Shown here: positions 2,351 through 34,877 of the stretch, piece after piece
How positions within the stretch are numbered: position 1 is the first letter of the stretch
How the letters are laid out: each line of letters starts with the position of its first letter
NCBI GenBank assembly: GCA_963733055.1
Contig: CAVTBR010000001.1
Coordinates: forward strand, 800,001-864,000
Direction of reading: 5' to 3'
From: Candidatus Bathyarchaeota archaeon
GTDB lineage: Archaea > Thermoproteota > Bathyarchaeia > 40CM-2-53-6
DNA: 64,000 nucleotides
Notes under the pieces: model-generated
Databases searched by the model: none
The model's input: the letters and a program-made list of their open reading frames with translations, nothing else
What the model was told of the DNA's origin: nothing
Position numbers and translations under genes: made by a program

Positions 2351-3592
2351 ATGCGAGTTCTAATAGTTGGTGCAGGCGCGATCGGATCCGTCATCGGTAA
2401 AATCCTACAAGCGCGTCCTGAATTCGAAGAAATCATCCTCGCCGACCTGAAGCAGGAAACCGCACAACGCATGATTGGAAATCTGAATGGTCCTGCCAAG
2501 CTGACCGCTATCGCCATGAATGCTAACAACATTGCCGACATGAAGAAAGTCATGAAGGACGTTCACGCCGATCTAGTAATCAACGCCACACTCCCACGCT
2601 TCTTCCTCAAAATCATGAGAGCAACCCTGGAGAGCGGCGCGAACTACATGGACATGGCAACCGACATAGGCGTAGCAAACTCAAGAGCCGGCCACAGAGT
2701 CCACAAAGTACCCATCGATTACCAGCTGGAACAGGACGCCGCCTGGAAGAACGCTGGGTTAGCCGCGATGGTCTGCTGGGGCGCTGACCCAGGAGCGGTA
2801 AACGTATTCGCGCGTTACGCCGCTGATCAACTGGATTCGGTAGACCGCATCCTAATCAGGGACGGAGACAACGCCAGCACCGGAGGCTTCGACGGACTAG
2901 TCTCCCTATGGTCTCCCGACACGTTCATAGAAGAAGTCGCCTACGCCGACGCCCTCGTCTGGACCAACGGCCACTACGAGAGGGTACCTTCGCTCTCAAG
3001 AAGCGAGGTATGGGACTTCCCGCAGCCAATTGGAAAGTTACGAGTTTGGGCGGTTGATCACGAGGAACCGCAAACATTAGGCCGGTACATCAAATGCAAC
3101 GAATGCAACTTCATGATATCCCTCAGCACCGAAACAGTCGAGACGATGAGAGTACTCAAGAAACTAGGCCTCGTCAACCCAGCCCCAATCAATGTTAAAG
3201 GGATCGAAGTCGCACCCCGCGACGTTGTAACCGCCTGTATGCCATCACCAAACGATCATCGACTTCAAAGCGGAACCAACGGCTACACATGCATAGGCAG
3301 CATGGTCATCGGCGAAAAAGCTGGAAAACGATACGGCCACTACATATACAACATGATGAGCCACGCCGAAGCCTACGCGAAATACGGCGTTACCGCAACA
3401 GCTTTGCAGACCGCCCTCCCGCCAGCCACCGCAGCAACCCTACTGGCCCGCGGGGAGATTAAGGAAAAAGGAGTATTCCCACCAGAAGCATTAGCCCCCA
3501 GCCCAATCATGAACGCCTTCACCGAACTCGGATTTCAATGGAAAGAAATTAGGAGAGAAGAAAAACCCCTTCTCCTTCCACTACTCGCCTAA
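2351..3592 (+). CDS. Saccharopine dehydrogenase / carboxynorspermidine dehydrogenase family oxidoreductase
   Basis: MRVLIVGAGAIG Rossmann motif, NYMDMA, GADPG, WSPDTFIEE, HEE and GVFPPE. The start is placed at ATG 2351. Confidence 0.8.
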   Translation: MRVLIVGAGAIGSVIGKILQARPEFEEIILADLKQETAQRMIGNLNGPAKLTAIAMNANNIADMKKVMKDVHADLVINATLPRFFLKIMRATLESGANYMDMATDIGVANSRAGHRVHKVPIDYQLEQDAAWKNAGLAAMVCWGADPGAVNVFARYAADQLDSVDRILIRDGDNASTGGFDGLVSLWSPDTFIEEVAYADALVWTNGHYERVPSLSRSEVWDFPQPIGKLRVWAVDHEEPQTLGRYIKCNECNFMISLSTETVETMRVLKKLGLVNPAPINVKGIEVAPRDVVTACMPSPNDHRLQSGTNGYTCIGSMVIGEKAGKRYGHYIYNMMSHAEAYAKYGVTATALQTALPPATAATLLARGEIKEKGVFPPEALAPSPIMNAFTELGFQWKEIRREEKPLLLPLLA

Positions 3593-22152: not shown

Positions 22153-23137
22153 TCAGGGTTTCTGCGGCTGGTGAACGTGCGTCGCAGGAATATCGTACTG
22201 AAGGACGCCATAAACGGGCGTCAAATACTTGCGATACTTATCGTTGGCACCGATTACGACTCGGTCGTACTCTTCGCCCAATCGTAGTGTTATTCGGCCT
22301 GGCCTTCCATTTCCTACTGGTTTGCGATCAATGTTCAGAATCGGAGCTACTTCAGCAGCGGTGCCAGTGAAAAAGGCCTCCTCACAGGTGTACAGTTCAG
22401 CTCGGGCGATTGTACGTTCCTTGAAAGGCACGTCATCGTCCTTGATTAGATCTATGACGGTTTGACGTGTTATACCGTTCAGGATGCCAGAGGAGGAAGT
22501 TGGCGTAGAAATGATCCCATCTTTAATTATGAAGATGTTTTCTCCCGTGCCTTCAGAAACGTCCCCTTTATTGTCGAGGAACAATGCCTCGTCGAAACCT
22601 GCCTCAGCTGCTTCAGTTCTAGCGAGGACAGAATTGATGTAATGGCCACAAGCCTTAGCCATGCCGGGCACGGCTGGTTCGCCAATACGGCGCCACGTTG
22701 AGACACAAATATCCAGTCCTGGTTTGTTTTCGTCGAAATATTTCTCATATGGAAAAGCGATGATGCTGACCGAGGTTGGTGTCGCTCTTGCGTCAAGGTT
22801 TATTCCTCCAACACCCTTGAAGGCGATAGGCCTGATGTACAAAGATGAATGGAAATCATTCTTCTCTATAAGACCCGAAACCGCTTCACAAATTTCTTCT
22901 TCACTATAAGGTAGGTCGAAGCTGTATATCTTCGCAGGATTCGGCCATGCGTCTAATGTGGTCCCTAAGTCTGAATACGAGAACCTCGTCCCCCGATTTG
23001 TACGCTCTTATACCTTCGAAGACCCCCGTCCCATAGTGTAGGGCATGTGTAAACACGTGCACGGTGGCCTTCTCCCAAGGAACAATTTCCCCATCTAGCC
23101 AAACGAATTTCGCTGGAGGCTTGAACAAAGTCTTCAA
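22153..23137 (-). CDS. ilvE: Branched-chain amino acid aminotransferase, +1 indel near 22938
   Basis: [12 protein letters not shown] in the 5' ORF and [24 protein letters not shown] in the 3' ORF. Confidence 0.92.
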
Positions 23138-23757
23138 CTCCTCGCAACATCAACTAATTGAAACGGACGCAGGCTGCGTTCATACGAACGAATCTCTTGT
23201 TCATGTAGTAGCGTCAGGGATATCTCATCGAGACCTTCCAAGAGACATTTTTTCCTGAATGCGTCCACATCGAAACGTAGGTCGTGTCCGTCAGGTTTTC
23301 CGATTGTCTGCGTTTCTAAGTCTACCCGCAAGGAGTAACCCTCATGTTTTGAGGTCTCCTCGAAGAGTTGACTTACCGTTGTTTCGTCGAGGGTGATCGG
23401 AAGAATTCCGTTCTTGAAGCAGTTGTTGTAGAATATGTCGGCGTACGATGGTGCGATTAAGACCTTGAACCCGTAGTCCGAGAGAGCCCACACAGCGTGT
23501 TCGCGGGAGCTTCCGCAGCCGAAATTTGCTCGCGTCAGCAGGATTTTGCCATCTTTGTAACGTGGATGGTTCAAGATGAAATCCGTCGTTAGGGTCCCGT
23601 CTGGATGAAAACGCCAGTCGTAGAATAGATAGTGACCAAACCCTGTTCTCTCCGTTAGTTTGAGGAATTGTTTGGGAATGATCTGGTCTGTGTCAACGTT
23701 TACTCGATCTAACGGTACGACAACTCCAGTCTGTGGTTTGAAGGGATCCATAATCAA
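23134..23757 (-). CDS. leuD: 3-isopropylmalate dehydratase small subunit
   Basis: [13 protein letters not shown] and [11 protein letters not shown]. Confidence 0.96.
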
Positions 23758-25170
23758 TCAGCTTGCTACGTCCCACTCACGTACATCTACAAAATGACCA
23801 GCAACTGCGGCTGCCGCAGCCATAATCGGACTCACCAAATGTGTTCGTCCTCCCCGACCCTGCCTTCCCTCGAAATTTCGGTTCGAGGTACTCGCGCACC
23901 GATCGCCCGACGCGAGTATGTCAGGATTCATTCCCAAGCACATGCTGCATCCAGACTCCCTCCATTCGAAGCCCGCTTCTTTGAAGTCGCGATCTAATCC
24001 CTGCTTCTCCGCTTGATACTTGACTAGCTGGGAACCTGGCACAACCATAGCGCGCAGTCCCGGAGCCACTTTCTTTCCCTTGATCATCTTCGAAGCCGCA
24101 ACGAGATCCGTGAGGCGAGAATTGGTGCAGGAGCCGATGAACACTCTATCGAGTTTGATTGACTGTATGGCTGTACCCGGTTGTAGGTCCATATACTCCA
24201 AAGCACGAGTGGCAGCCTCTCTCATCTGTGAATTTTCGAATTCTTCTGGGTGTGGGACAGAACCTGTAACGTCGGTAACCATCGCTGGGGTAGTTCCCCA
24301 AGTCACCTGAGGCTTCATCCTACCTGCGTCCAATTCCACACTCTTATCAAACGAGGCGCCCGAATCCGTTCGGAGTTCGCGCCATTGTTTCTCCGCCTCT
24401 TCGAAAACTTCCCCTCCTGGCGCGTACTTCCGGCCCCGAACGTAACGAAACGTGGTTTCATCGGGGGCGATCAGGCCAGCTCTCGCCCCACCCTCTATGG
24501 TCATGTTGCATATCGTCATGCGTTCTTCCATAGACAATGATGTAATTGCTTCGCCTCGGTACTCGATGATCGAACCTGTTCCACCAGCGGTCCCAATGCG
24601 GCCAATTATCGAGAGGATTATGTCCTTGGCCGTGACTCCGTTAGGAGGATTGCCATCAACACGAACTTCGAAGGATTCTGGTTTCTCGAGCGAAAGACAC
24701 TGCGTAGCTAAGACATGCTCAACTTCACTCGTCCCGATTCCTAAGGCTAAAGCCCCAAATGCTCCGTGAGTCGATGTGTGACTGTCACCACAGACGATTG
24801 TTAGTCCGGGAAGCGTTATTCCGAGTTCTGGTCCAATTACGTGAACGATTCCTTGGTTTGGGCTTGCCAAATCAAAGAACGTGATTCCGAAATCCACACA
24901 ATTTCGAGCCAACGCTTCAATTTGTTTTTTGGAGACTGGGTCTTGTATTGGGATCGAACGATCGGTGGTTGGAACGTTATGATCAACGGTCGCGAATGTC
25001 AGGTCTGGTCTCCTAGCACGCCTTCCTGCTGATCGTAGTCCCTCGAAAGCTTGCGGTGAGGTTACCTCGTGGACTAGGTGTCTGTCAATCCAAATTAGGC
25101 TTGGCCGACCTTCCTCCTCGTATACGAGGTGGTCTTCCCAGATTTTTTCAAAAAGTGTTCGAGGAGGCAT
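23758..25170 (-). CDS. leuC: 3-isopropylmalate dehydratase large subunit
   Basis: [29 protein letters not shown] and [12 protein letters not shown]. Confidence 0.97.
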
Positions 25171-25195
25171 TGTTCATCAACTTTGGATTATTGGG

Positions 25196-26876
25196 TCACT
25201 CACAAACCGCACCTTCGGCCGCGGAATGCACCAGTTTCGCGTACCTGAACAAAACACCTCGCTTGTACTTGGGTTCGGGTTGCTTCCATTGTTTTCAATC
25301 GTGCCGCGAATTCTTCGTCGCTTACGTCCGCTTCAAGGTGACGAAGTTTCGCGTCAACCGTGACCACATCGTCGTCCCTCAGAAGAGCCAGTGGTCCGCC
25401 AACCTGAGCCTCAGGTGAAACATGACCTATCATCAATCCGCGGGTGGCACCAGAGAACCTTCCGTCCGTCACTAACGCTACCTCTTCCCCAAGTCCTTGA
25501 CCTACGATTGCAGCAGTAATCGAAAGCATCTCACGCATGCCCGGTCCCCCTTTGGGACCCTCGTAGCGTATGACGACCACATCGCCAGCTTTGATTCCTC
25601 CTTCGCTCACAGCTCGGAAGGCCTCCTCCTCAGAATCGAAAAGTCTTGCTGGGCCACGATGCGTAAGCCTAGATGAACTCGAAATTTTTGCAACTGCACC
25701 GTCTGGCGCCAAATTTCCCTTGAGGACCACTAGGCCGCCCTCTTGCGAGAATGGGTTGGAAACGTCTCTCACAACGTCCTGTTGTCCGTCGTCGAAATGG
25801 ATTTCTTCAATATTCTGGCGAATGGTTTTACCCGTGACCGTAAGTGTTTCTCCGTTCAATGCCCCCTTCTCTAGCAGTTTTTTCATTATGAGAGGAACCC
25901 CGCCGGCGCGGTCTAGGTCATACATCACATACCTGCCACCCGGTCTCAGATCCGCGATCTTGGGAGTCCTTCGGCCTACGCGTTCGAAATCGTCTAAGGT
26001 GACCTTGATTCCTGCCTCATACGCGATGGCCGGGATGTGCAGAAAAGCATTCGTTGAACCTCCCATCGCTTGAACGACAGCAATGGCGTTTTCGAATGCT
26101 TCGAAAGTTAGGATGTCGCTCGGGCGAATCCCATTCTCAATGAGTCGCATGACGGCTAGACCGCTTAGATATGATGCTTGGTAACGTCGCTGATCAATTG
26201 CTGGGGGTGAAGCTGTACCCGGGAGAGACAGACCTAAGGCCTCCATGGCTGAGGCCATCGTGTTAGCCGTGTAGAGCCCTCCGCACGAGCCTTCACCTGG
26301 ACAGGCTGAGCACTCAAGGTTGTTGAGCTGCTCCGAAGTCATTTTGCCCGCAGCATATGACCCCACGGCCTCGAAGACGTCTTGAATTGTCACATCGCGG
26401 CCTTCGAACCTTCCGGGCATTATTGTTCCTCCGTACAAGAAGACTGATGGAATATTCAGTCTCGCTGACGCCATCGCTGATCCTGGAAGACTTTTGTCGC
26501 AACCTGCTACGGTAACGAGACCATCTAGGCTTTGCCCAATTGCCATAACCTCAATTGAATCGGCGATGATCTCTCGACTTACGAGTGATGCTTTCATGCC
26601 TTCGGTTCCCATTGAAACGCCATCGCTGACTGCGATAGTTCCAAACTCAAATGGAGTTCCTTTCGCACTCCGTACACCTTCTTTGACTTTCTTCGTGAGT
26701 TTGTTCAAGTGAAAATTGCATGGCGTGACCTCGTTCCATGTGCTTGCAACACCCACGAATGGTTGACCGAAGTCCTCAGTTGTGTAGCCGATGGCTCGGA
26801 GCATTGAGCGATTTGGGGCCCGCTGGGGACCTTCGGTTATGTCCCTGCTTCTCAGGCGGGAGTCTTTGGAAACCAT
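25196..26876 (-). CDS. ilvD: Dihydroxy-acid dehydratase, +1 indel near 25293
   Basis: [21 protein letters not shown] and TDGRFSG. The canonical end [30 protein letters not shown] lies in the neighbouring frame. Confidence 0.95.
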
Positions 26877-26938
26877 CCATCAAATCCTTCTTGTGTGTTC
26901 TGATTGCTTGACTTTTGAGAGTATCATCTTGGCCTCAT

Positions 26939-28474
26939 CTATCCCTCTTTCAAGAGAGGGGCACTTGGGACTTCTGAGAGCCGTCGTCGGAGCAAGATTT
27001 TGTTTATTGCTTCAATCATGGCTTCGACGCTCGCGACGACCACGTCTTCCCTTGCAGCACTTGCCGAAACCGTCGTCCCATTCGAGTCTTCGACCTTAAC
27101 CAGAGCTTCGGCTAGAGCGTCCGATCCTCCGGTAATTGCTTTGAGGCGATATTCTTTCAAGGTGACCTGCACAGACGGGTCGGTAATCTTCTGAACCGCG
27201 CGAATTGCTGCATCAACGGGGCCGAGGCCTGTCTCTGCAGAGGTGTATTCTTTCTTGTTTAATCGTAAGCGTACTGAGGCCGTTGGAACTAATCCCTTCC
27301 CGGTTACAACGGCGAGATCGACTAAGTCTAGGATGCGTTCTGCTCCTTTTGTTTTCCCTAATACTGCCTCGGCAATTGCGCCTAGGTCGGCATCAGTTAC
27401 GGTCTTCCCTTTGTCACCGACGTCTTTGACTCTCGTAACTATCTCGGCGAGTTGATTTTTGTCAGGGAAAAGACCTTCTTCCGCCAGCTGAGCTGCGATT
27501 CCATGTGCTCCAGCGTGCTTGCCTGCTTGGAACCAGCGGCGGCGGCCGACCAGGCTAGGGTCGTACGGTTCGTATGTAAGCGGCATTTCGGTTATGCCGT
27601 GGGTGTGAATTCCGGATTCATGCCCGAAAGCATTCTCGCCCACAACGGCTTTGTTGGGTTGAACTCGGATCCCAGTTAGTGTTGCGACCAGTTTCGATGT
27701 TTCAGTCAAGAGCTCCGTTTTGATGTTCGTTTTTTGATTGTATAGCCTATGAAGCGACATCACCAATTCTTCCAAAGAAGTGTTTCCTGCTCTTTCCCCG
27801 AGTCCATTTACAGTCACGTGCGCTTGAACCGCTCCCACCTCAATAGCGGCGAGGCTGTTCGCTACCGCAAGGCCAAAGTCATCGTGACAGTGAATACTAA
27901 CGGGGACGCTGGTTGACGAGACAAGTTCTCTCGTAATCATGGCGATATTTTGCGGTGAAGAAATCCCGACCGTGTCCGGGATGTTTATGCGGTCCGCGCC
28001 GGACTGTTCCGCGGTTTTGTAGGCTTCCTTCAGGAAGCCAATTTCAGTTCGCGTTGCGTCTTCAGCGGAGAACTCGACGATTTGAGCGTGTTGTTTGGCG
28101 TAAGAAACAGAATCGGCTATGCGACTGAGCACTTGGTCTCTGTTCAGTTTGAGTTTGTATTTTAGGTGAAGGTCTGAGGTAGCTATGAATACGTGCACGG
28201 ACCTCACACCCGTGCTTAACGCGGTGTCGATGTCGTTCTTGTTCGCCCGGGCTAAAGCTACGACTTCGCATGATAGACCTGCTTTCGCAACTGCCCCAAC
28301 CGATTCGCATTCACCTGCTGAGCTTATTGGAAAACCTGCTTCGATCGCGTCGACACCGAGTTTATCGAGCTGTCGGGCGATTCTGACTTTCTCGTCTGGC
28401 GTTAGGGATACGCCCGGTGTTTGTTCTCCATCCCTAAGAGTAGTGTCGAAAATCCGAACATGGTTTGAGTTCAT
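26939..28474 (-). CDS. leuA: 2-isopropylmalate synthase
   Basis: [30 protein letters not shown] and a regulatory domain with GPVDA. Confidence 0.88.
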
Positions 28475-29516
28475 TCGAAGATCACCTCACCTAATTCCGT
28501 CTTGATCGCTCTGCCCATTTCGAGAGTGCTGAGTCTCCCTCCGAGATCCGGAGTAACTGCTCCTCTGGCCAAGCAGCTTTCTACAGCTCTTTGGATCGCT
28601 CTTGAAGAACGCCTGGCGTCGTCGTCATGTTTCTGTAGTCCGAGCCAGTCCAACATCATGGCTGCGGAGAGAATAAGGGACGTGGGATTTGCAATGTTTT
28701 TGCCTGCGATATCGGGTGCGCAACCGTGTACCGGTTCAAAGATAGCGAAATCTTGACCGATGTTTGCCGATGGAGCTAGGCCGAGACCGCCTACTACTTG
28801 AGCTGCTTCGTCAGAGAGAATGTCGCCGAACATGTTTGTTGTCACTATGACGTCGAATTGTTGTGGATTTCTGATCAGGTTCATCGCGGCAGCGTCCACT
28901 AGCATGTCGGAGAAATGAATGTCAGGGTAGTTCGAAGCTACCTCTCTGCAAATAGATAGGAACAAGCCGTCAGTTTTCTTCATGACATTGGCTTTGTGTA
29001 CTCCAGTAACTGAGTTCCTTCGCTCTCGGGCGAGTTTGAACGCATACCTAGCGATGCGCTCGCACGCCTTCCGTGTGATCACGCGCGTTGCGGTGGCCCT
29101 TTCGTTATCCCCGGCCTCCAAACCCGAGTACAGATCCTCCGTGTTCTCCCTGACGATGACTAAGTCCGTCAATGGATTCAGGCATGGAACGTTCGGAAAT
29201 GATTTTGCGGGTCGTATGTTCGCGTAAAGATCGCATAGCTGTCGCAGACGGATAATGACTTCGTAGGCGGACTGCCCAATGGGGCCCTTAAGACAACAGT
29301 CGCTCTTCCTGATTGCGTCAACAGTCCCTTCTGGCAACGCTTGTCCATGTTTCTCCAAAGCTCGATCACCGGCTTCGACTGAAACAAGGTCCAGTGAGAC
29401 GCCGAAAGCGTTCTCAACCTCAGCAAGGACTTCCTTTGTCGCAGCAGATTGCTCCGGACCTATACCATCTCCCTCTACGAGGGTTACTGTGTAAGTCGTA
29501 TCGCTTCACCAGCCAT
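28471..29516 (-). CDS. leuB: 3-isopropylmalate dehydrogenase, one base missing near 29500
   Basis: The frame extends upstream to [16 protein letters not shown]; also [20 protein letters not shown] and EPVHG. Confidence 0.9.
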
Positions 29517-29521
29517 TGGTT

Positions 29522-30511
29522 CTAATTCTCGAGGCCCGAGAGCTTTCGAATGTCCTTACCCACTTTTTCGATGGAGTGGTTCGATAACTCCGTTAACATC
29601 TCGTCTAGCTCCTGGGCGCTTTTTTCTCGGTCCCCGGTCCATGTCTTGGCGAAAGCTCCCGATCGAATTTCCTTCAGAATCGCTGTCATGTTGTCTCGAA
29701 CTTTTTTGTCTACGACTTTGGGTCCTACCGTCAGGCCTCCGAATTTGGCAGTGTCCGATATTCGTCGGAGCATTCCTACGAAGCCGTACTGGTAGACTAG
29801 ATCCATTATGAGTTTCATTTCATTGCAGGTTTCGTAATAGGCGAGTTCTGGGGCGTACCCAGCGCCGACCAGGGTTTCGTATCCGTTGATGATAAGTCGC
29901 ATTAATCCTCCCACGAGGACTGCTTGCTCACCGAAGAGGTCGGTTTCGGTTTCATCCTTGAATGTTGTTTCGATCACGCCCGCCCTAGACGCACCGATCC
30001 CTTTACACATCGCGAGAACAAAATCACGGGCCCGTCCTGATGGGTTCTGGTAAACAGCGAAAAGAGCGGGTACACCAAAGCCGGTTACGTAGAGTTCACG
30101 TAATCTCTGGCCAGGGCTTTTGGGAGCGACCATTATTACGTCTACATTCTTGGGGGGGACAATGTCGCCAAAGTGAATGTTGTAGCCATGTGAGAAACTG
30201 AGTGTTTTGCCAGCTTTTAGATTCGGCTCAATTTCTGCTTTGAAAACAGCTGGCTGCTGTGGGTCAGGAATCAAGACCAAGATGGTGTCGGCTTTGGCAG
30301 ATGCATCCGTGACGGTTACCGGTTGGAAGCCGTCACTCTCTGCCAACTTCCATGATTTGCCGTCCTTGCGTAGACCCAAAAAGACTTCGGCACCCGAATC
30401 CCGCAGGTTTAGTGCCTGGGCTCGGCCTTGGCTCCCGTAGCCGATAACGCCGATCTTCGCTCCAACTATAGGGGAAACGTCGATTTCTTTATCGTAGTAT
30501 ACTTTCACCAT
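29522..30511 (-). CDS. ilvC: Ketol-acid reductoisomerase
   Basis: GYGSQG, APKSPG and ETETDLFGEQ. Confidence 0.96.
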   Translation of the reverse strand: MVKVYYDKEIDVSPIVGAKIGVIGYGSQGRAQALNLRDSGAEVFLGLRKDGKSWKLAESDGFQPVTVTDASAKADTILVLIPDPQQPAVFKAEIEPNLKAGKTLSFSHGYNIHFGDIVPPKNVDVIMVAPKSPGQRLRELYVTGFGVPALFAVYQNPSGRARDFVLAMCKGIGASRAGVIETTFKDETETDLFGEQAVLVGGLMRLIINGYETLVGAGYAPELAYYETCNEMKLIMDLVYQYGFVGMLRRISDTAKFGGLTVGPKVVDKKVRDNMTAILKEIRSGAFAKTWTGDREKSAQELDEMLTELSNHSIEKVGKDIRKLSGLEN

Positions 30512-30512
30512 T

Positions 30513-31025
30513 TCAAGTCACTCTCTGAGTTATCATTTCGCGAGCGAGCGCTGCTGCACCTGTCCGGGCCACTTTCTTGAGTCCGAAGTTTCGGGCAAGG
30601 TTTACGAAAGCGTTGACCTTGTCGGAGTCACCTGAAACCTCAACCGTCAAAGTGTCTGAGGAAATATCGACGATATCCCCCCGGAAAGTTTCAATAAAGT
30701 TCATGACCTCGGGCCTTGTCACCGGTGCCCCAGGCGAGAATTTGACGAGCGCCAGTTCACGAACAGTCGCATTTCTCTCCTCGAGGGTTTCGACGTTTCT
30801 AACATCGATAAGGCCGTCAATGGTCTTCATCACCTGGTCGAATCTGGCGTAGTCTGAGAACATCGTGAAGGTCATTCTTGCCACTCCAGGTATCTCGGCT
30901 GGGCCCACGGCTATGCTTTCAATGTTGAATGACTTTCTGCGAATCAGGTTGGAGATACGGTAGAGAACGCCTGGCCTGTTCTCAACTAAGGCTGATATGA
31001 TTCGTAGTTGCGAATCGTTATTCAT
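30513..31025 (-). CDS. ilvN: Acetolactate synthase small (regulatory ACT) subunit
   Basis: VENRPGVL..FNIESI, RELALVK and ARTG. Confidence 0.93.
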   Translation of the reverse strand: MNNDSQLRIISALVENRPGVLYRISNLIRRKSFNIESIAVGPAEIPGVARMTFTMFSDYARFDQVMKTIDGLIDVRNVETLEERNATVRELALVKFSPGAPVTRPEVMNFIETFRGDIVDISSDTLTVEVSGDSDKVNAFVNLARNFGLKKVARTGAAALAREMITQRVT

Positions 31026-32770
31026 CCTACAATCATCTCTTTGATTCCAGCTCCGGGCGGCAGCATTGGCAGAACGTTCTCCTCCGGTGAGATTGGGACA
31101 TCGATAACAGTCGTAACTGGAGACCGCATTGCCGTATCGATGGCAGTTTCAAGATCCAGCAGGGTTTCTACTCGAATCCCTTCAGCCCCGTATGATTGAG
31201 CTAGTTTCACGAAGTCCGGTGACTTGCCGAGGTTGGTAGCTGAATATCGTCGATTGTAAAAGAACCGTTGCCACTGAGCCACCATACCAAGCATACGATT
31301 ATTCAGAATAATCACCGTGACAGGAATTTGCTCCTCGATACTCGTAGCGAGCGAGTTTTCCGTCATCTGGAAACTTCCGTCACCGGCAATGTCGAAGACA
31401 GGAAGATCCGGCCTAGCAACCTTGGCGCCTAGCGCTGCGGGAAACCCAAAACCCATTGTGCCCAGTCCACCTGAGCTGAAGAACGTTCTCGGTTCGATCA
31501 CTTGAAAATACTGCTCGCACCACATCTGATGTTGGCCGACCTCGGTCGTTACAATAGCTTCCTTTGGGAGAAATCTGCGTAACATCCTAATTGTTTCGGC
31601 TCCGCTTAGGCACGAGCCGTTTCCATCAAGCTCGGTCTTCGCCATCACCACCACTTCTTGAGCGCGTTTGACCCAAGCATCGCGCTCCCCGCGCAGTGCC
31701 CCCGCTTCGATTTCGCGGATCAGAGCCTGCAAAGCCTTCTTCGCGTCAGCGACCAAGCTGATTACTGTAAGCTTGTGATTCTTTCCGACCTCGGACTTGT
31801 CTGCGTCAATGTGAATGACCTTGGTGTTCGGTGCGAATTTCTCGATCTTACCGGTTGTCCTGTCGGAGAGCCGCGAGCCTATCACTAACAACACATCGCA
31901 TTCGGGGATGAGTTTGTTCGTGCGCTCGGACCCATGCATACCCATGCAGCCGAGTGAGAGAGGATGGTTCTCTGGAAACGCCCCCTTTCCCATGAAAGAG
32001 GTTACAACTGGTGCCGCTAGGAATTCAGCTAAGGCTTGGAGTTCGCGGTAAGCATTAGCCATCTTTACTCCACCTCCCGCGAGGATGACGGGACGTTGTG
32101 CGTTGAGAATCGCACGTGCGATGGTTTTCACGGCCACGGGGTCCGGGTCGAGCAGTGGTTGGTAGTTTGGAAAATCGACCCGCTCCGGGAATTCGACTTC
32201 GTCTTCACCCTGCTGAACGTCTTTTGGAATGTCCACTAAAACCGGTTGAGGCCTTCGAGTTGTCGCCAAATAGAAGGCCGCCTTAATTGAGTAGGGCACG
32301 TCGCGGACGCGGAGTGGTTGAAAGGTGTATTTTGTTACGGATGTAGCCATCCCAACGATATCGGTCTCTTGGAAAGCGTCCGTTCCAATCATGTAGGACG
32401 GAACTTGACCTGTGACTGCCACAACGGGAGATGAATCCATGTACGCAGTAGCCAAACCAGTCAGGAGGTTGGTAGCACCAGGGCCCGAGGTTGCCATACA
32501 AACCCCGACCTTCCCAGAAGCACGCGCATAACCGTCGGCCATATGGGCCGCGGACTGTTCATGCCTTGCAAGAATGTGTCTCAGACTCTTTTCATTCAGC
32601 GGAGTGTATCTAAACGAATCACAATCGTACAGGGCATCGTAGATTGGCATGTTCGCTCCGCCGGGATGCCCAAAAACGACTTCCACTCCCTCCCGTAGTA
32701 GCGCTTCCACAGCCGCATGGGCTCCGGACATTCTTGTCAAGTTTAGAGTCAACTCTTGTTTTTTATGCAC
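31022..32770 (-). CDS. ilvB: Acetolactate synthase large subunit
   Basis: RHEQSAAH, TSGPGATN, DAFQETD, GMHG, VGQHQMW and GDGSFQM. GGAGG lies 6 nt before GTG 32770. Confidence 0.96.
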   Translation of the reverse strand: MHKKQELTLNLTRMSGAHAAVEALLREGVEVVFGHPGGANMPIYDALYDCDSFRYTPLNEKSLRHILARHEQSAAHMADGYARASGKVGVCMATSGPGATNLLTGLATAYMDSSPVVAVTGQVPSYMIGTDAFQETDIVGMATSVTKYTFQPLRVRDVPYSIKAAFYLATTRRPQPVLVDIPKDVQQGEDEVEFPERVDFPNYQPLLDPDPVAVKTIARAILNAQRPVILAGGGVKMANAYRELQALAEFLAAPVVTSFMGKGAFPENHPLSLGCMGMHGSERTNKLIPECDVLLVIGSRLSDRTTGKIEKFAPNTKVIHIDADKSEVGKNHKLTVISLVADAKKALQALIREIEAGALRGERDAWVKRAQEVVVMAKTELDGNGSCLSGAETIRMLRRFLPKEAIVTTEVGQHQMWCEQYFQVIEPRTFFSSGGLGTMGFGFPAALGAKVARPDLPVFDIAGDGSFQMTENSLATSIEEQIPVTVIILNNRMLGMVAQWQRFFYNRRYSATNLGKSPDFVKLAQSYGAEGIRVETLLDLETAIDTAMRSPVTTVIDVPISPEENVLPMLPPGAGIKEMIVG

Positions 32771-32804
32771 CCCGCCCCTCCGAACAACTAAGCTGGAGGA
32801 CGGG
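32771..32804 (-). promoter_or_regulatory. Hairpin sequestering the ilvB Shine-Dalgarno (candidate translational attenuator)
   Basis: Minus strand CCCGTCCTCC-agcttagttgttc-GGAGGGGCGGG-GTG. Confidence 0.7.
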
Positions 32805-32879
32805 CTATTGAAGGACGATAATGTCTACAAGCGAAGTCAGTAAGTTCAGAATGCTAAACTGAGGCGAATGGTTTGTCAA
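32805..32879 (-). CDS. Putative ilv-leu operon leader peptide (24 aa)
   Basis: TTG start, MTNHSPQFSILNLLTSLVDIIVLQ*. 10 of codons 10-23 are Ile/Leu/Val, and the stop abuts the hairpin. Confidence 0.65.
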   Translation of the reverse strand: MTNHSPQFSILNLLTSLVDIIVLQ

Positions 32880-33024
32880 CGCACTCGTAGACCTTGAATT
32901 CAGCCACCATCCGAGGAGCCTCTAATAAGATTATCGAGGGTTCTCGTCAGTCTCACGTCGCTACTAGAACCTGAGTAACCATTTCGTCCCATCTAGTTCC
33001 TTAGCTGTAGTAGGCATGAACTTG

Positions 33025-34695
33025 TCAGTTGACCAAACGACGATTTGCTTGCACTTGTTTCAATGGTGTTTTCTTGGCCGATCCCGTTCTTAGCGCATAG
33101 TTGTAACCATCGACTAGCGCTTCTACACTTGCTTCGATAATGTTTGTCGATGACGCGACCGTCGTCCATGTTCTGCGCTTGTCGAAGAAGTCTATGTACA
33201 CAGCAACTCGGGCCGCTGTTCCCGCTTCCGAGTCGACCTCCCGGACCCTGTAACCAATAAGCATCGCTGAAAACTTCGAACCGAACTTTTCTCTCAACAC
33301 AACGCGAAGACCTTGGTCCAGAGCGTTGACTGGCCCATTGCCTACGGCAGTAGTCTCCAGCACCTTACCCTTGACCTCAACCGCCAGTTTACAGTGTGAT
33401 AATGACTCCTTACTTTGGTTCTGCACAGCAGCGTTCCAATAAAGAACCCTGAAAGGGTCAGATCGCCGAGTCAAAGCGCGCAAGAAGAGAAGCTCTACAG
33501 AAGCTTCCGCGAACTCGAGGTTGCAGCCCAAGGCTTCGAGATGTTTGACGTCCCGAAGGAGGTCTGAGAGTCTTTTGTCAGTCTTGGAGAGGCGGAATCC
33601 AAATCTTTGTGCGGCAGAGAGCAGGCTAGAGCGGCCGGCTTGTGAGGAGACTGTAATGGCTCGTGTATTGCCGAAGGCTTTCGGATCGAAGAATTCGTAC
33701 GCCGCTTCTGTCTTCAGCACCGCGTCCCCATGGACGCCCCCCTTGTGCGAGAAAGCATGTCTTCCGACAAAAGGCTTGTACCTGTCCTCCCGAACGCCGC
33801 TCATCTCGTACGTGAAACTCGACAACGAGGCTAATTTTGAGGTGTCCAGCCCCGTCTTAACGCCCAGCAGGTGAAGGTTCGCAACAACCTCGATTAAGTT
33901 GGCATTACCAACCCTCTCGCCCAAGCCATTCACAGTTCCCTGTATGTGCGAGGCTCCGGCCATCAGAGCGAAAAGTGAGTTAGCTGTGGCAATGCCGCGG
34001 TCGTTATGCGCATGGATCCCAACTGGAACTCCAACTTGACCCACCACGAGTCTAGTTGACTCGTAGATTTCTGATGGGTAGGTCCCCCCTCGCGTATCGC
34101 ACAGAACAAGCGTGGAGGCTCCCGCGTCTTGTGCTGCCTCCAAAGTCGAGAGGGCGTACTCAGGGTCTGCCCTGAAACCATCAAAGAAATGTTCAGCGTC
34201 ATAGATCACGTTCCGTTCGTGCGAAAGTAGAAACTCCACGGAATCACGAATCATTCTTCTATTCTCTTCCAAGGTTGTCCTTAGAACTTTCTCAACTTGA
34301 AAGGTCCAAGACTTGCCGAAGATTGTGACCGTTTCGGTTCCGGCTCTTAGAAGATGCTCGAGGTTACGATCTTCGGACGGATGCGTATCTGCGCGGCGCG
34401 TCATTCCGAAAGCGGTGACGTGAGAGAAATCTTTTTTGTTCAACGATTGCGCGAGTTTGAAAAATTCGCTATCAGTCGGATTCGTTTCGTTGGGCCAACC
34501 AGCTTCAACGTAATCAACTGCGGCAGCAATGAAAGCTCGTGTAACTCTAAGTTTCTGGGTTGAGGTAAAGTTTACACCTACTGATTGATTCCCATCACGG
34601 AGTGTTGTATCGTAAACTTCTACGGATTCAGGGAAATGTCGGGGGAAACTACACTGTTCGGCGACGGCTGTTTTGGATATCGATAAAACGATCAC
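33025..34695 (-). CDS. cimA: (R)-citramalate synthase, bacterial type
   Basis: DTTLRDGNQ, IFGKSW, DAEHFFDG, HAHND, HKGGVH and GNGPVNALD. Confidence 0.88.
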   Translation of the reverse strand: MIVLSISKTAVAEQCSFPRHFPESVEVYDTTLRDGNQSVGVNFTSTQKLRVTRAFIAAAVDYVEAGWPNETNPTDSEFFKLAQSLNKKDFSHVTAFGMTRRADTHPSEDRNLEHLLRAGTETVTIFGKSWTFQVEKVLRTTLEENRRMIRDSVEFLLSHERNVIYDAEHFFDGFRADPEYALSTLEAAQDAGASTLVLCDTRGGTYPSEIYESTRLVVGQVGVPVGIHAHNDRGIATANSLFALMAGASHIQGTVNGLGERVGNANLIEVVANLHLLGVKTGLDTSKLASLSSFTYEMSGVREDRYKPFVGRHAFSHKGGVHGDAVLKTEAAYEFFDPKAFGNTRAITVSSQAGRSSLLSAAQRFGFRLSKTDKRLSDLLRDVKHLEALGCNLEFAEASVELLFLRALTRRSDPFRVLYWNAAVQNQSKESLSHCKLAVEVKGKVLETTAVGNGPVNALDQGLRVVLREKFGSKFSAMLIGYRVREVDSEAGTAARVAVYIDFFDKRRTWTTVASSTNIIEASVEALVDGYNYALRTGSAKKTPLKQVQANRRLVN

Positions 34696-34877
34696 TCATT
34701 AGAACTAGCCTTTTTCGTCGATAGCTATGGCGGTAATAAAAACGTTCGCCATACGCTCTGGGACGAATTGAACCATCCCTTAGAGTGGAATAATCGTGGA
34801 TTCCTTTTCGGACTCGAACACAAACGAGGTCAAGGTCTTCTCGATGCCTCCAATGAGTCTTAGCTTACGCCACCGCC

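Follow-up and report, generated by a model that had tools for sequence, protein, structure and literature searches.

The 64,000-nucleotide stretch analysed here (positions 800,001 to 864,000 of contig CAVTBR010000001.1, from a Candidatus Bathyarchaeota archaeon; hereafter the window) carries on its minus strand a nine-gene ilv-leu operon that makes all three branched-chain amino acids (BCAA). The first feature of this operon is a compact leader element, composed of a short open reading frame (ORF) ending in a run of isoleucine, leucine and valine (ILV) codons and of a hairpin, P2, that begins at the base after the stop codon. When 46 non-identical regions upstream of ilvB were folded, 42 showed the same ORF and hairpin layout, which spans eight of the ten families of the order; the element sequences cannot be aligned between families, and the same features recur nonetheless. 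We consider it probable that the element is a cis-regulatory leader of the ilv-leu operon, in which the speed of a translating ribosome would read the supply of charged tRNA-Val, tRNA-Ile and tRNA-Leu. Our confidence in any particular output step, by which such a reading would be passed on to ilvB, is low.

An earlier annotation, made from the letters of this DNA alone (hereafter the sequence-only reading), had described a nine-gene ilvB to ilvE operon at this place, and Pfam assigns all nine genes. A 16S rRNA gene on this contig is archaeal, and the close protein relatives of this IlvB come from records titled Bathyarchaeia or Bathyarchaeota. The features of the locus, ordered from the operon back to its promoter, are as follows.

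22153-32740, minus strand: controlled operon ilvB-ilvN-ilvC-leuB-leuA-ilvD-leuC-leuD-ilvE (Pfam on nine ORFs)
32729-32740, minus strand: likely ilvB start, TTG 32740-32738 or ATG 32731-32729 (conserved start position)
32741-32770, minus strand: A/U-rich, C-poor spacer with a degenerate Shine-Dalgarno (SD) motif AGAGTTGA 8 nt before TTG 32740, and with a non-conserved GTG at 32770-32768
32771-32804, minus strand: hairpin P2, 34 nt, with arms CCCGTCCTCC (32804-32795) and GGAGGGGCGGG (32781-32771) around a 13-nt loop, beginning at the base after the leader stop
32805-32879, minus strand: leader ORF, TTG start, 24 codons, TAG stop at 32807-32805, peptide MTNHSPQFSILNLLTSLVDIIVLQ* (direct reading and ORF listing)
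32811-32831, minus strand: codons 17-23 (L-V-D-I-I-V-L), the putative regulatory run, with Gln at 32810-32808 between it and the stop
32823-32832, minus strand: 3' strand of helix P1, GCUUGUAGAC, where the ILV run begins with codons S-L-V-D (minimum-energy fold of the leader)
32883-32892, minus strand: 5' strand of helix P1, GUCUACGAGU, between the SD-like site and the leader start (minimum-energy fold of the leader)
32884-32898, minus strand: block of the 5' untranslated region (5' UTR) TTCAAGGTCTACGAG, with SD-like AAGGT at 32895-32891, 11 nt before the leader start (genus alignment)
32922-32936, minus strand: archaeal promoter, with CGATAAT resembling a B recognition element (BRE) at 32936-32930 and TATA-like CTTATTAG at 32929-32922 (read from the sequence)

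Codon signature of the leader ORF

The TTG-initiated frame of 24 codons at 32879-32805 had been put forward by the sequence-only reading, and both direct reading of the DNA and the ORF listing agree with it; isoleucine, leucine or valine stands at ten of codons 10-23, as claimed. Among the relatives, an ORF of 15 to 36 codons (median 29) is present in 40 loci, and the reading frame is open in all 42 loci that share the layout, the set to which counts refer hereafter unless another is given. A short leader ORF with clustered codons for the end products of the pathway thus stands between the promoter and the first gene of the operon. ILV codons account for 338 of the 420 terminal codons, ten per locus (80%), as against 24% in the proteins of this genome, and the bias is steepest at codons -5 to -2 from the stop, which are ILV in 98-100% of cases. 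The commonest residues at -4, -3 and -2 are V, I and L, respectively, yielding the consensus V-I-L-x-stop, and codon -1 is Gln in 16 loci. All three amino acids are found in 37 of the 42 leaders, and I, L and V swap with one another between species.

The specificity of this bias is best appreciated from the residues that it leaves out. Codon position 2 is T in 338 of the 420 terminal codons, with positions 1 and 3 variable; Phe and Met codons share this NTN pattern, yet neither occurs among the terminal ten, and Trp, Cys and Tyr are also at zero. The N-terminal two thirds of the peptide and its length are unconstrained across loci, and the leader start column reads TTG or ATG in every one of 13 genus sequences. 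An ILV-only codon bias combined with a free N-terminus is what would be expected of regulatory codons, rather than of a functional peptide or of an element acting as RNA alone.

The same observations bear on two rival explanations. Under the first, the ORF would be incidental to a structured non-coding RNA or a protein-binding site, and the presence of two helices could be taken in its favor. The three-base periodicity with T at codon position 2, a frame open in 42 of 42 loci, a start that toggles between TTG and ATG and a stop kept at the base of the hairpin all speak for translation instead; the loops and arms are not conserved, and no Rfam match was found at E-values up to 10 for window positions 32500-33300 or up to 1 for 10 related loci. 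This explanation is hence highly improbable. Under the second, the leader would encode a small hydrophobic peptide with a role of its own, the hairpin would end or stabilize a short transcript, and ilvB would be transcribed from a promoter in the spacer. The unit does have its own promoter, its hydrophobic C-terminus reaches 14-15 residues in one family (f2), and TATA-like strings occur in some spacers (CATAAAAAAC here, TTATAAAAAC in locus L012). Against this, the run usually comprises 7-10 residues, too short for a membrane span and well below the 18-20 residues used to recognize membrane proteins; it is made of I, L and V only, with no enrichment of F, M, W, A or G, and the rest of the peptide is unconstrained. 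The unit, moreover, is always directly upstream of ilvB at a fixed distance (25-55 nt), and a conserved SD lies 3-8 nt past the A-rich stretch, upstream of any start from such a TATA string, which implies read-through transcription into ilvB. A free-standing peptide is therefore very unlikely to be what this unit is for.

Conservation and background frequency

A uniform rule was applied to establish how often the arrangement arises by chance. It calls for at least six I/L/V among the last ten codons of an ORF with no in-frame stop within them, a fold at or below -10 kcal/mol in the 45 nt past the stop with its first pair at most 3 nt from the stop, and a location anywhere within 450 nt upstream of a gene. 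The matches were distributed as follows.

Upstream windows of this genome: 17 of 2631
Regions upstream of ilvB within the same order: 39 of 42
Regions upstream of ilvB in other families of Bathyarchaeia: 3 of 45
Bacterial loci with the closest IlvB: 1 of 60, with the match at -393

Of the three order loci missed by the rule, L013 and L024 have no leader, and L036 has the ORF with a hairpin under the cut-off. In a separate scan of this genome in all frames, 208 of 57,363 short ORFs had at least six ILV among their nine terminal residues, and the leader ORF ranks second of these 208 in the stability of the 45 nt past the stop. The element is more than a chance arrangement. The most stable post-stop structure of the same ILV-tail scan (-26.7 kcal/mol) follows a short ORF at 3459-3506 of the window (minus strand), which ends in LGWGLMLLVGILLFP and is of mixed hydrophobic composition, not ILV-specific.

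The 46 loci folded include four without the layout (L013, L024, L061 and L063), of which L063 seems to derive from a contig outside the order that is also represented by L170. Each of the two families of the order that lack the element is represented by a single sampled genome. Loci with only 75 nt upstream (L019) or no N-terminal match (L026), paralogues of 32-38% identity (L027-L030) and L066 were dropped, as were duplicates, namely L059 (identical to L037) and L050-L053, L055-L058, L060, L064 and L065, which are records of earlier loci. Equivalents of the leader ORF and hairpin, whose absence from relatives would have spoken against the sequence-only reading, are thus widespread, with ORF end, hairpin and promoter all kept across eight of ten families.

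Outside the order the element is rare. The next-best relatives of IlvB (about 45-47% identical) belong mostly to Anaerolineales and other Chloroflexota, plus Armatimonadetes and Terriglobia. A horizontal origin of the element together with the operon was considered and rejected, given that these relatives mostly lack the element (1 of 60 by the rule). Four archaeal-type ilvB genes (L051, L054, L057 and L058; 77-84% identical) come from records titled Acidiferrales, Chloroflexota, Methylomirabilota and Acidoferrum; L054 has the leader, as do the loci that duplicate L051, L057 and L058, and the labels or binning of these four bacterial records look wrong.

The post-stop hairpin and the leader helix

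The sequence-only reading had the leader stop abutting a GC-rich hairpin, and there is indeed no gap between TAG 32807-32805 and the first paired base at 32804. P2 of the window on its own folds at -20.9 kcal/mol (z-score -3.31, with none of 200 shuffles as good), and across loci the mean z-score against dinucleotide shuffles is -3.46, with 34 of 42 below -2. P2 begins 0 nt past the stop in 34 of 42 loci and at most 3 nt past it in 41 of 42, and its median stem is 13 bp long. Neither its loop nor its arms are conserved in sequence, the 5' arm beginning with 31 distinct 8-mers among the 42 loci.

As to conservation with covariation, the check proposed with the sequence-only reading, the element is kept with changed arm sequences, but column covariation, sought with RNAalifold in 13 genus sequences aligned by MAFFT, returned 0 pairs. 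This null result comes about because the alignment misplaces the arms and because the register of P1 varies between subclades; per-locus folds with shuffle controls were used in place of column covariation. Significance is also confined to sub-elements, the 201 nt at 32740-32940 as a whole folding no better than shuffles (z-score -0.98).

An oligo-T run is the signal for intrinsic termination in archaea. What follows P2 here is an A-tract (CATAAAAAAC) rather than a U-tract, as the sequence-only reading had remarked, and runs of at least four T after the hairpin occur in 6 of 42 loci and not in the window, so that no intrinsic terminator made of hairpin and U-tract was found before the first structural gene, either here or as a shared trait of the 42 loci. 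Nor are the gene 3' ends of this genome enriched in hairpins (17.5% at or below -15 kcal/mol, as against 23.7% inside genes), and on this ground the hairpin was rejected as a general terminator; runs of five or more T are found at 6% of these 3' ends.

Upstream of P2, a second helix, P1, pairs the region between the SD-like site and the leader start with codons at the beginning of the ILV run, and it forms in the minimum-energy fold of the leader in the window and in many relatives. In other families it is built from different sequences and often takes in the leader ATG, as in GACGATGAGTG/CACTCATCGTC and GAAAGGAC/GTCCTTTC. When the 5' region of the leader was paired by RNAduplex with the proximal codons of the ILV run, the mean z-score was -1.46, with 9 of 39 loci below -2 (L021, L032 and L046 were excluded from the P1 and 5'-end tests on account of unreliable TATA calls), and cognate pairs average -22.3 kcal/mol as against -18.5 kcal/mol for non-cognate ones. 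Averaged over 41 loci, the probability of being unpaired falls to 0.23-0.31 between -27 and -15 nt relative to the stop. For the initiation region of the leader this probability is 0.38, lower than for that of ilvB (0.46), and a ribosome modelled on codon -6 raises it to 0.47. Taken together, these predictions make P1 probably a real helix.

The element begins at a promoter that the sequence-only reading had also noticed. The TATA-like site is there, at 32929-32922, and it is preceded by the BRE-like CGATAAT. It lies one base off the position originally given, the sole point in which that description of the locus had to be corrected. Most order loci carry a promoter block of the form (C/G)GATA-N2-3-(C/T)TTAT(T/A)A(G/A) at 117-146 nt before the leader stop. 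Transcription would start at about 32898-32902, giving a 5' UTR of some 20 nt. The AAGGT proposed as an SD-like site was located at 32895-32891, within the 5' UTR block TTCAAGGTCTACGAG, which is almost unchanged in the genus alignment; motifs of the GAGGT type end 6-12 nt before starts in this genome.

The ilvB start and the unmasking hypothesis

Across the order, a TTG or ATG is conserved three codons upstream of the Pfam-aligned IlvB N-terminus, and in the window this codon is TTG 32740, three codons before ATG 32731; the likely ilvB start of this genome is corrected accordingly. In many loci there are in-frame stops between the hairpin and ilvB, just upstream of the conserved start, and these exclude an ilvB start in or beside the hairpin in those loci. 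The spacer itself has a recurrent composition, with A at 0.4-0.57 from +8 to +13 and G at 0.4-0.5 from +14 to +17 past the hairpin. Past the hairpin come some 13 nt of RNA rich in A and U and poor in C, an SD peak at 14-17 nt and a start some 10 nt beyond; the distance from hairpin end to ilvB is 25-55 nt across loci, with the start typically about 30 nt past the hairpin. That such a weak ilvB start should have been kept throughout the order hints, on sequence grounds, that initiation there may depend on something else.

By a visual tally, over half of the 42 loci have TTG at the conserved ilvB start, and most others have ATG. In some (L011, L037, L006, L009 and L015) a start-stop (ATG TAA) or a mini-ORF of 3-4 codons overlaps this start. 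SD motifs precede a small minority of genes in this genome and lie farther from the start than in E. coli; those of the GGTGA type end mostly 6-7 nt before the start, with a peak at 6.

The sequence-only reading had instead placed the ilvB start at GTG 32770, with a GGAGG in the 3' arm of P2, 6 nt before it, locked away until a ribosome stalled in the leader melts the 5' arm. The GGAGG is present and the frame is open from that GTG. The downstream SD, moreover, is degenerate (AGAGTTGA), so the start may have shifted in this genome, and the last leader codons fall within the zone of 10-15 nt in which, according to section 10 of PMC4824070, a ribosome blocks hairpin closure in E. coli. The comparative evidence, nonetheless, points elsewhere. 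A GGAGG in the arm is confined to L001-L003, the three closest sequences, and the GTG reads GTA in the nearest relative (L002, 89% IlvB identity); in-frame stops in other loci exclude such a start. A spacing of 6 nt is also below the usual 8-11 nt for GGAGG, which in this genome ends mostly 7-12 nt before the start with a peak at 10, and the homology of the GTG-started ORF to the Pfam domain TPP_enzyme_N begins only at residue 14. Nor is conservation seen for the other pairing invoked in the same reading, between the Val-Leu codons and the 3' arm (ILV tail against 3' arm, mean z-score 0.0, 0 of 42 loci below -2). We therefore regard a literal version of this model as unlikely for this genome.

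The more general notion, that a stalled ribosome frees the ilvB SD wherever it may lie, was evaluated by placing a ribosome, modelled as a 30-nt footprint with sterics and kinetics ignored, at 13 leader positions. The mean accessibility of the ilvB region is 0.47 on the free leader, 0.50 with the ribosome at codons -5/-4 and 0.48 with it at the stop; it goes up in L003, L010, L021 and L035, and down in L040, L025 and L022. With a mean unpaired probability of 0.46-0.47, the ilvB SD and start were not found to be sequestered in a helix in these folds, and the modelled stall had no consistent effect on them. A long-range helix between TTCAAG at the leader 5' end and CTTGA at the ilvB start, part of the minimum-energy fold of this region in the window, was rejected as a general feature (mean z-score +0.13, 1 of 39 loci below -2). 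Frameshifting or read-through into ilvB was likewise rejected, the frame being open to the leader end here but interrupted by in-frame stops in relatives. The proposal of a leader-peptide translational attenuator is thus partly supported: right in kind, as a leader-peptide element of the ilv-leu operon, and not supported in its mechanism of SD unmasking.

Proposed working of the leader

Under the BCAA-sensing reading that we favor, a ribosome that translates the leader while BCAA are plentiful would complete the peptide and depart, and the leader would then close into P1 and P2, P1 joining the beginning of the ILV run to the region where translation of the leader itself is initiated. When one of the amino acids is short, the ribosome would dwell on the terminal V-I-L codons, P1 would be held open, since a ribosome anywhere in the ILV run would cover its 3' strand, the ribosome would be pressed at the base of P2, and expression of the operon would rise.

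The geometry of the element lends itself to such a pause. At the prevailing 0-nt offset, P2 begins 12 nt downstream of where codon -3 begins. Its base would stand at the mRNA entrance of a ribosome that has codon -2, an ILV codon throughout, in its A site. Passages of PMC7282821 describe E. coli stem-loops at 11-12 nt from the P-site codon as hindering A-site tRNA binding, and by analogy the hairpin could sharpen the pause on the V-I-L codons. Section 10 of PMC4824070 reports, also for E. coli, that a ribosome with its A site within 10-15 nt of the hairpin base prevents closure, and that a terminator 5 bp past a stop codon drops from about 90% to less than 10% efficiency. The final three or four leader codons fall within that zone of 10-15 nt.

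Several observations nonetheless weigh against this reading. The SD of the leader is weak, half of the leader starts are TTG, support for P1 is moderate and the host organisms are uncultured. There is no consistent modelled unmasking of the ilvB initiation region by a leader ribosome, and no conserved pairing was found of the ilvB region with the leader 5' end (mean z-score +0.13) or of the ILV tail with the 3' arm (0.0), so that the sequence does not reveal how a stall would be passed on to ilvB expression. If the ribosomal helicase is taken to act at the channel entrance, 11 nt from the P site, a stall at codons -4 to -2 abuts P2 without melting it, and a terminating ribosome melts more of the hairpin; the sign of any hairpin-based model is therefore uncertain. 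Finally, scans of this genome for hairpins abutting a stop and for single-amino-acid runs in short upstream ORFs returned no analogous leader for other amino acids, and the principle is therefore not shown to be general in this organism.

As regards the output, we favor a post-transcriptional effect, in the form of more ilvB initiation or a stabler message, over premature termination, because there is no U-tract, no alternative structure and no hairpin enrichment at gene ends. The converse view, that the position of the leader ribosome decides whether polymerase or nascent RNA is lost before ilvB, could operate through termination by FttA/aCPSF1 on ribosome-free RNA, through pausing or termination at the hairpin in an A/U-rich hybrid, or through blocked 5'-to-3' decay. 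The ilvB initiation region looks constitutively open, which is at odds with translational masking, the 13 nt past P2 would form a weak RNA-DNA hybrid, and two loci of another family, described below, have a T5-T6 run 5 nt past the stop of an ILV-rich ORF. Furthermore, passages of PMC11616081 put forward the hypothesis that FttA in archaea exerts a quality control that depends on coupling. These points have to be set against the scarcity of T-runs past the hairpin and the ordinary gene ends reported above, and no antiterminator alternative was found. Simple coupling, besides, gets the sign wrong, since starvation would uncouple the polymerase and increase termination. We consider transcript-level output rather unlikely on these grounds, though a serious rival, to which the two loci with the T5-T6 run lend some weight.

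A further possibility, which we put forward tentatively and do not hold to be probable, is that archaea possess ribosome-stalling sensors of their own, with the base of P2 at the mRNA entrance and a self-closing P1, and with an output mechanism of a kind not known from bacteria, which would dispense with terminator, antiterminator and masked SD. In one version, a stalled ribosome would keep the leader open and a relay of ribosomes would re-initiate at the weak, often TTG, ilvB start near the hairpin; in another, it would shield the sole exposed U-rich stretch from FttA/aCPSF1.

Relation to known systems

Leader-peptide attenuation is a textbook bacterial mechanism that relies on coupled transcription and translation. 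The principle of the element described here is bacterial, but it is realized in another host domain, with another type of promoter and another architecture. A close likeness is to E. coli ilvL and ivbL, where a short Ile/Leu/Val-rich ORF also stands between the promoter and an acetolactate synthase gene and also carries codons for all three amino acids. In contrast to these, the bathyarchaeal leader has an archaeal promoter and host and no U-tract terminator; a single codon separates its ILV run from the stop, which directly adjoins the sole strong hairpin. No mutually exclusive antiterminator was found in the two pairings scanned (mean z-scores 0.0 and +0.13). The ilvBNC attenuator of C. glutamicum, as described in passages of PMC11857589, likewise has a leader peptide ahead of a BCAA operon; it is a three-hairpin transcriptional attenuator, whereas the present element has two helices and no terminator.

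Among translational attenuators, those of the erm and cat genes are controlled by a stall on an upstream ORF and involve no terminator. Passages of PMC1262725 describe actinobacterial leader-peptide elements of amino acid genes, and passages of bioRxiv 10.1101/834739 describe mycobacterial polycysteine short ORFs; the bathyarchaeal leader shares with the translational attenuators the stall on an upstream ORF, which here would have to occur, the lack of a terminator and the clustering of sensed codons. It differs from them in that their paired ribosome-binding site is freed by the stall, while the ilvB region is not detectably paired. In tnaC, with Rho, and in secM-type systems, the stall site also lies at the end of the ORF beside the control element, but these sense tryptophan or secretion through the nascent chain, and the signal here would be hungry codons. 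Frameshift-type stem-loops, in the passages of PMC7282821 that treat them, have the hairpin base at the same 12 nt past the first base of the P-site codon. No slippery sequence accompanies the leader hairpin and alternative frames are not conserved open; if relevant at all, the stem-loop effect would sharpen the pause rather than shift the frame.

The sequence-only reading held that leader-peptide attenuation is barely documented in archaea, and our full-text literature searches agree: they returned bacterial attenuators and archaeal small-ORF surveys, and no amino-acid-sensing leader peptide for any archaeon. In the passages retrieved from archaeal ribosome-profiling papers, upstream ORFs are mentioned only as a possibility. 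With 42 natural variants, a clear codon signature and a two-helix anatomy, the element would make the use of archaeal ribosomes as metabolite sensors directly testable, and such work would test how a signal is relayed by a eukaryote-like transcription machinery that lacks hairpin terminators. The uniform rule, for its part, is ready for annotating leader ORFs that are now unannotated in Bathyarchaeia genomes.

Other upstream ORFs ahead of ilvB

Other lineages of Bathyarchaeia appear, from their sequences, to have arrived at independent upstream-ORF designs before ilvB. In families f22, f25 and f28 (L151-L159, L163 and L167), one to three mini-ORFs of the form MGY(R/C)F(I/V) precede ilvB by about 100-245 nt, the strict motif being present in 10 of 175 loci. 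Where they occur in tandem (f22, with MGYRFVNPQGEGK followed by MGYRFILREAQN as examples), they are 42-45 nt apart, the stop of one abuts the start of the next, and each has its own SD, that of the following copy being encoded in the end of the previous one. The mini-ORF of L163 (f25), MGYSFINLPYVLLQQVIILL*, joins the MGY and ILV themes.

Family f27 (L165 and L166) shows ILV-rich ORFs of 16 codons, MSIRVVVSEVLVLTVL and MSIQVVVIKVSLLTVL, at about 150-200 nt upstream of ilvB. These have a good SD (GGAGG, 7-10 nt before a GTG), a start region that pairs with the VL(T) codons and the run of T5-T6 five nt past the stop. In L130 (family f12) the ORF ends in LRLVPDVVVLIL (VPDVVVLIL), its stop lies 43 nt before the aligned IlvB N-terminus, and beyond it stand a weak hairpin of 5 bp, whose loop is rich in C and U, and, after another 9 nt, an ATG that lacks an SD; this locus may represent a compact version of the coupling type. 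If these designs are what they seem, upstream-ORF control of the ilvB operon would be a theme of the whole class. The ILV scan also found a bacterial ilv leader of classic appearance in L069, from a record titled Terriglobia bacterium; this leader ends in AIIRISSVIIIVVGVPGPG*, lies about 100 nt upstream of ilvB and, though not planned as such, served as a positive control.

The neighbouring LeuA/CimA-like gene

A second LeuA/CimA-like gene lies upstream of the leader at 33025-34695 (minus strand, Pfam), and the gap of 254 nt between it and the GTG-started ilvB ORF houses the promoter, the leader and the hairpin. This gene has a TATA-like site of its own, TTTTTATTA, and a short untranslated region (34696-34745, minus strand) with no leader ORF, and its control seems to be separate from that of the nine genes.

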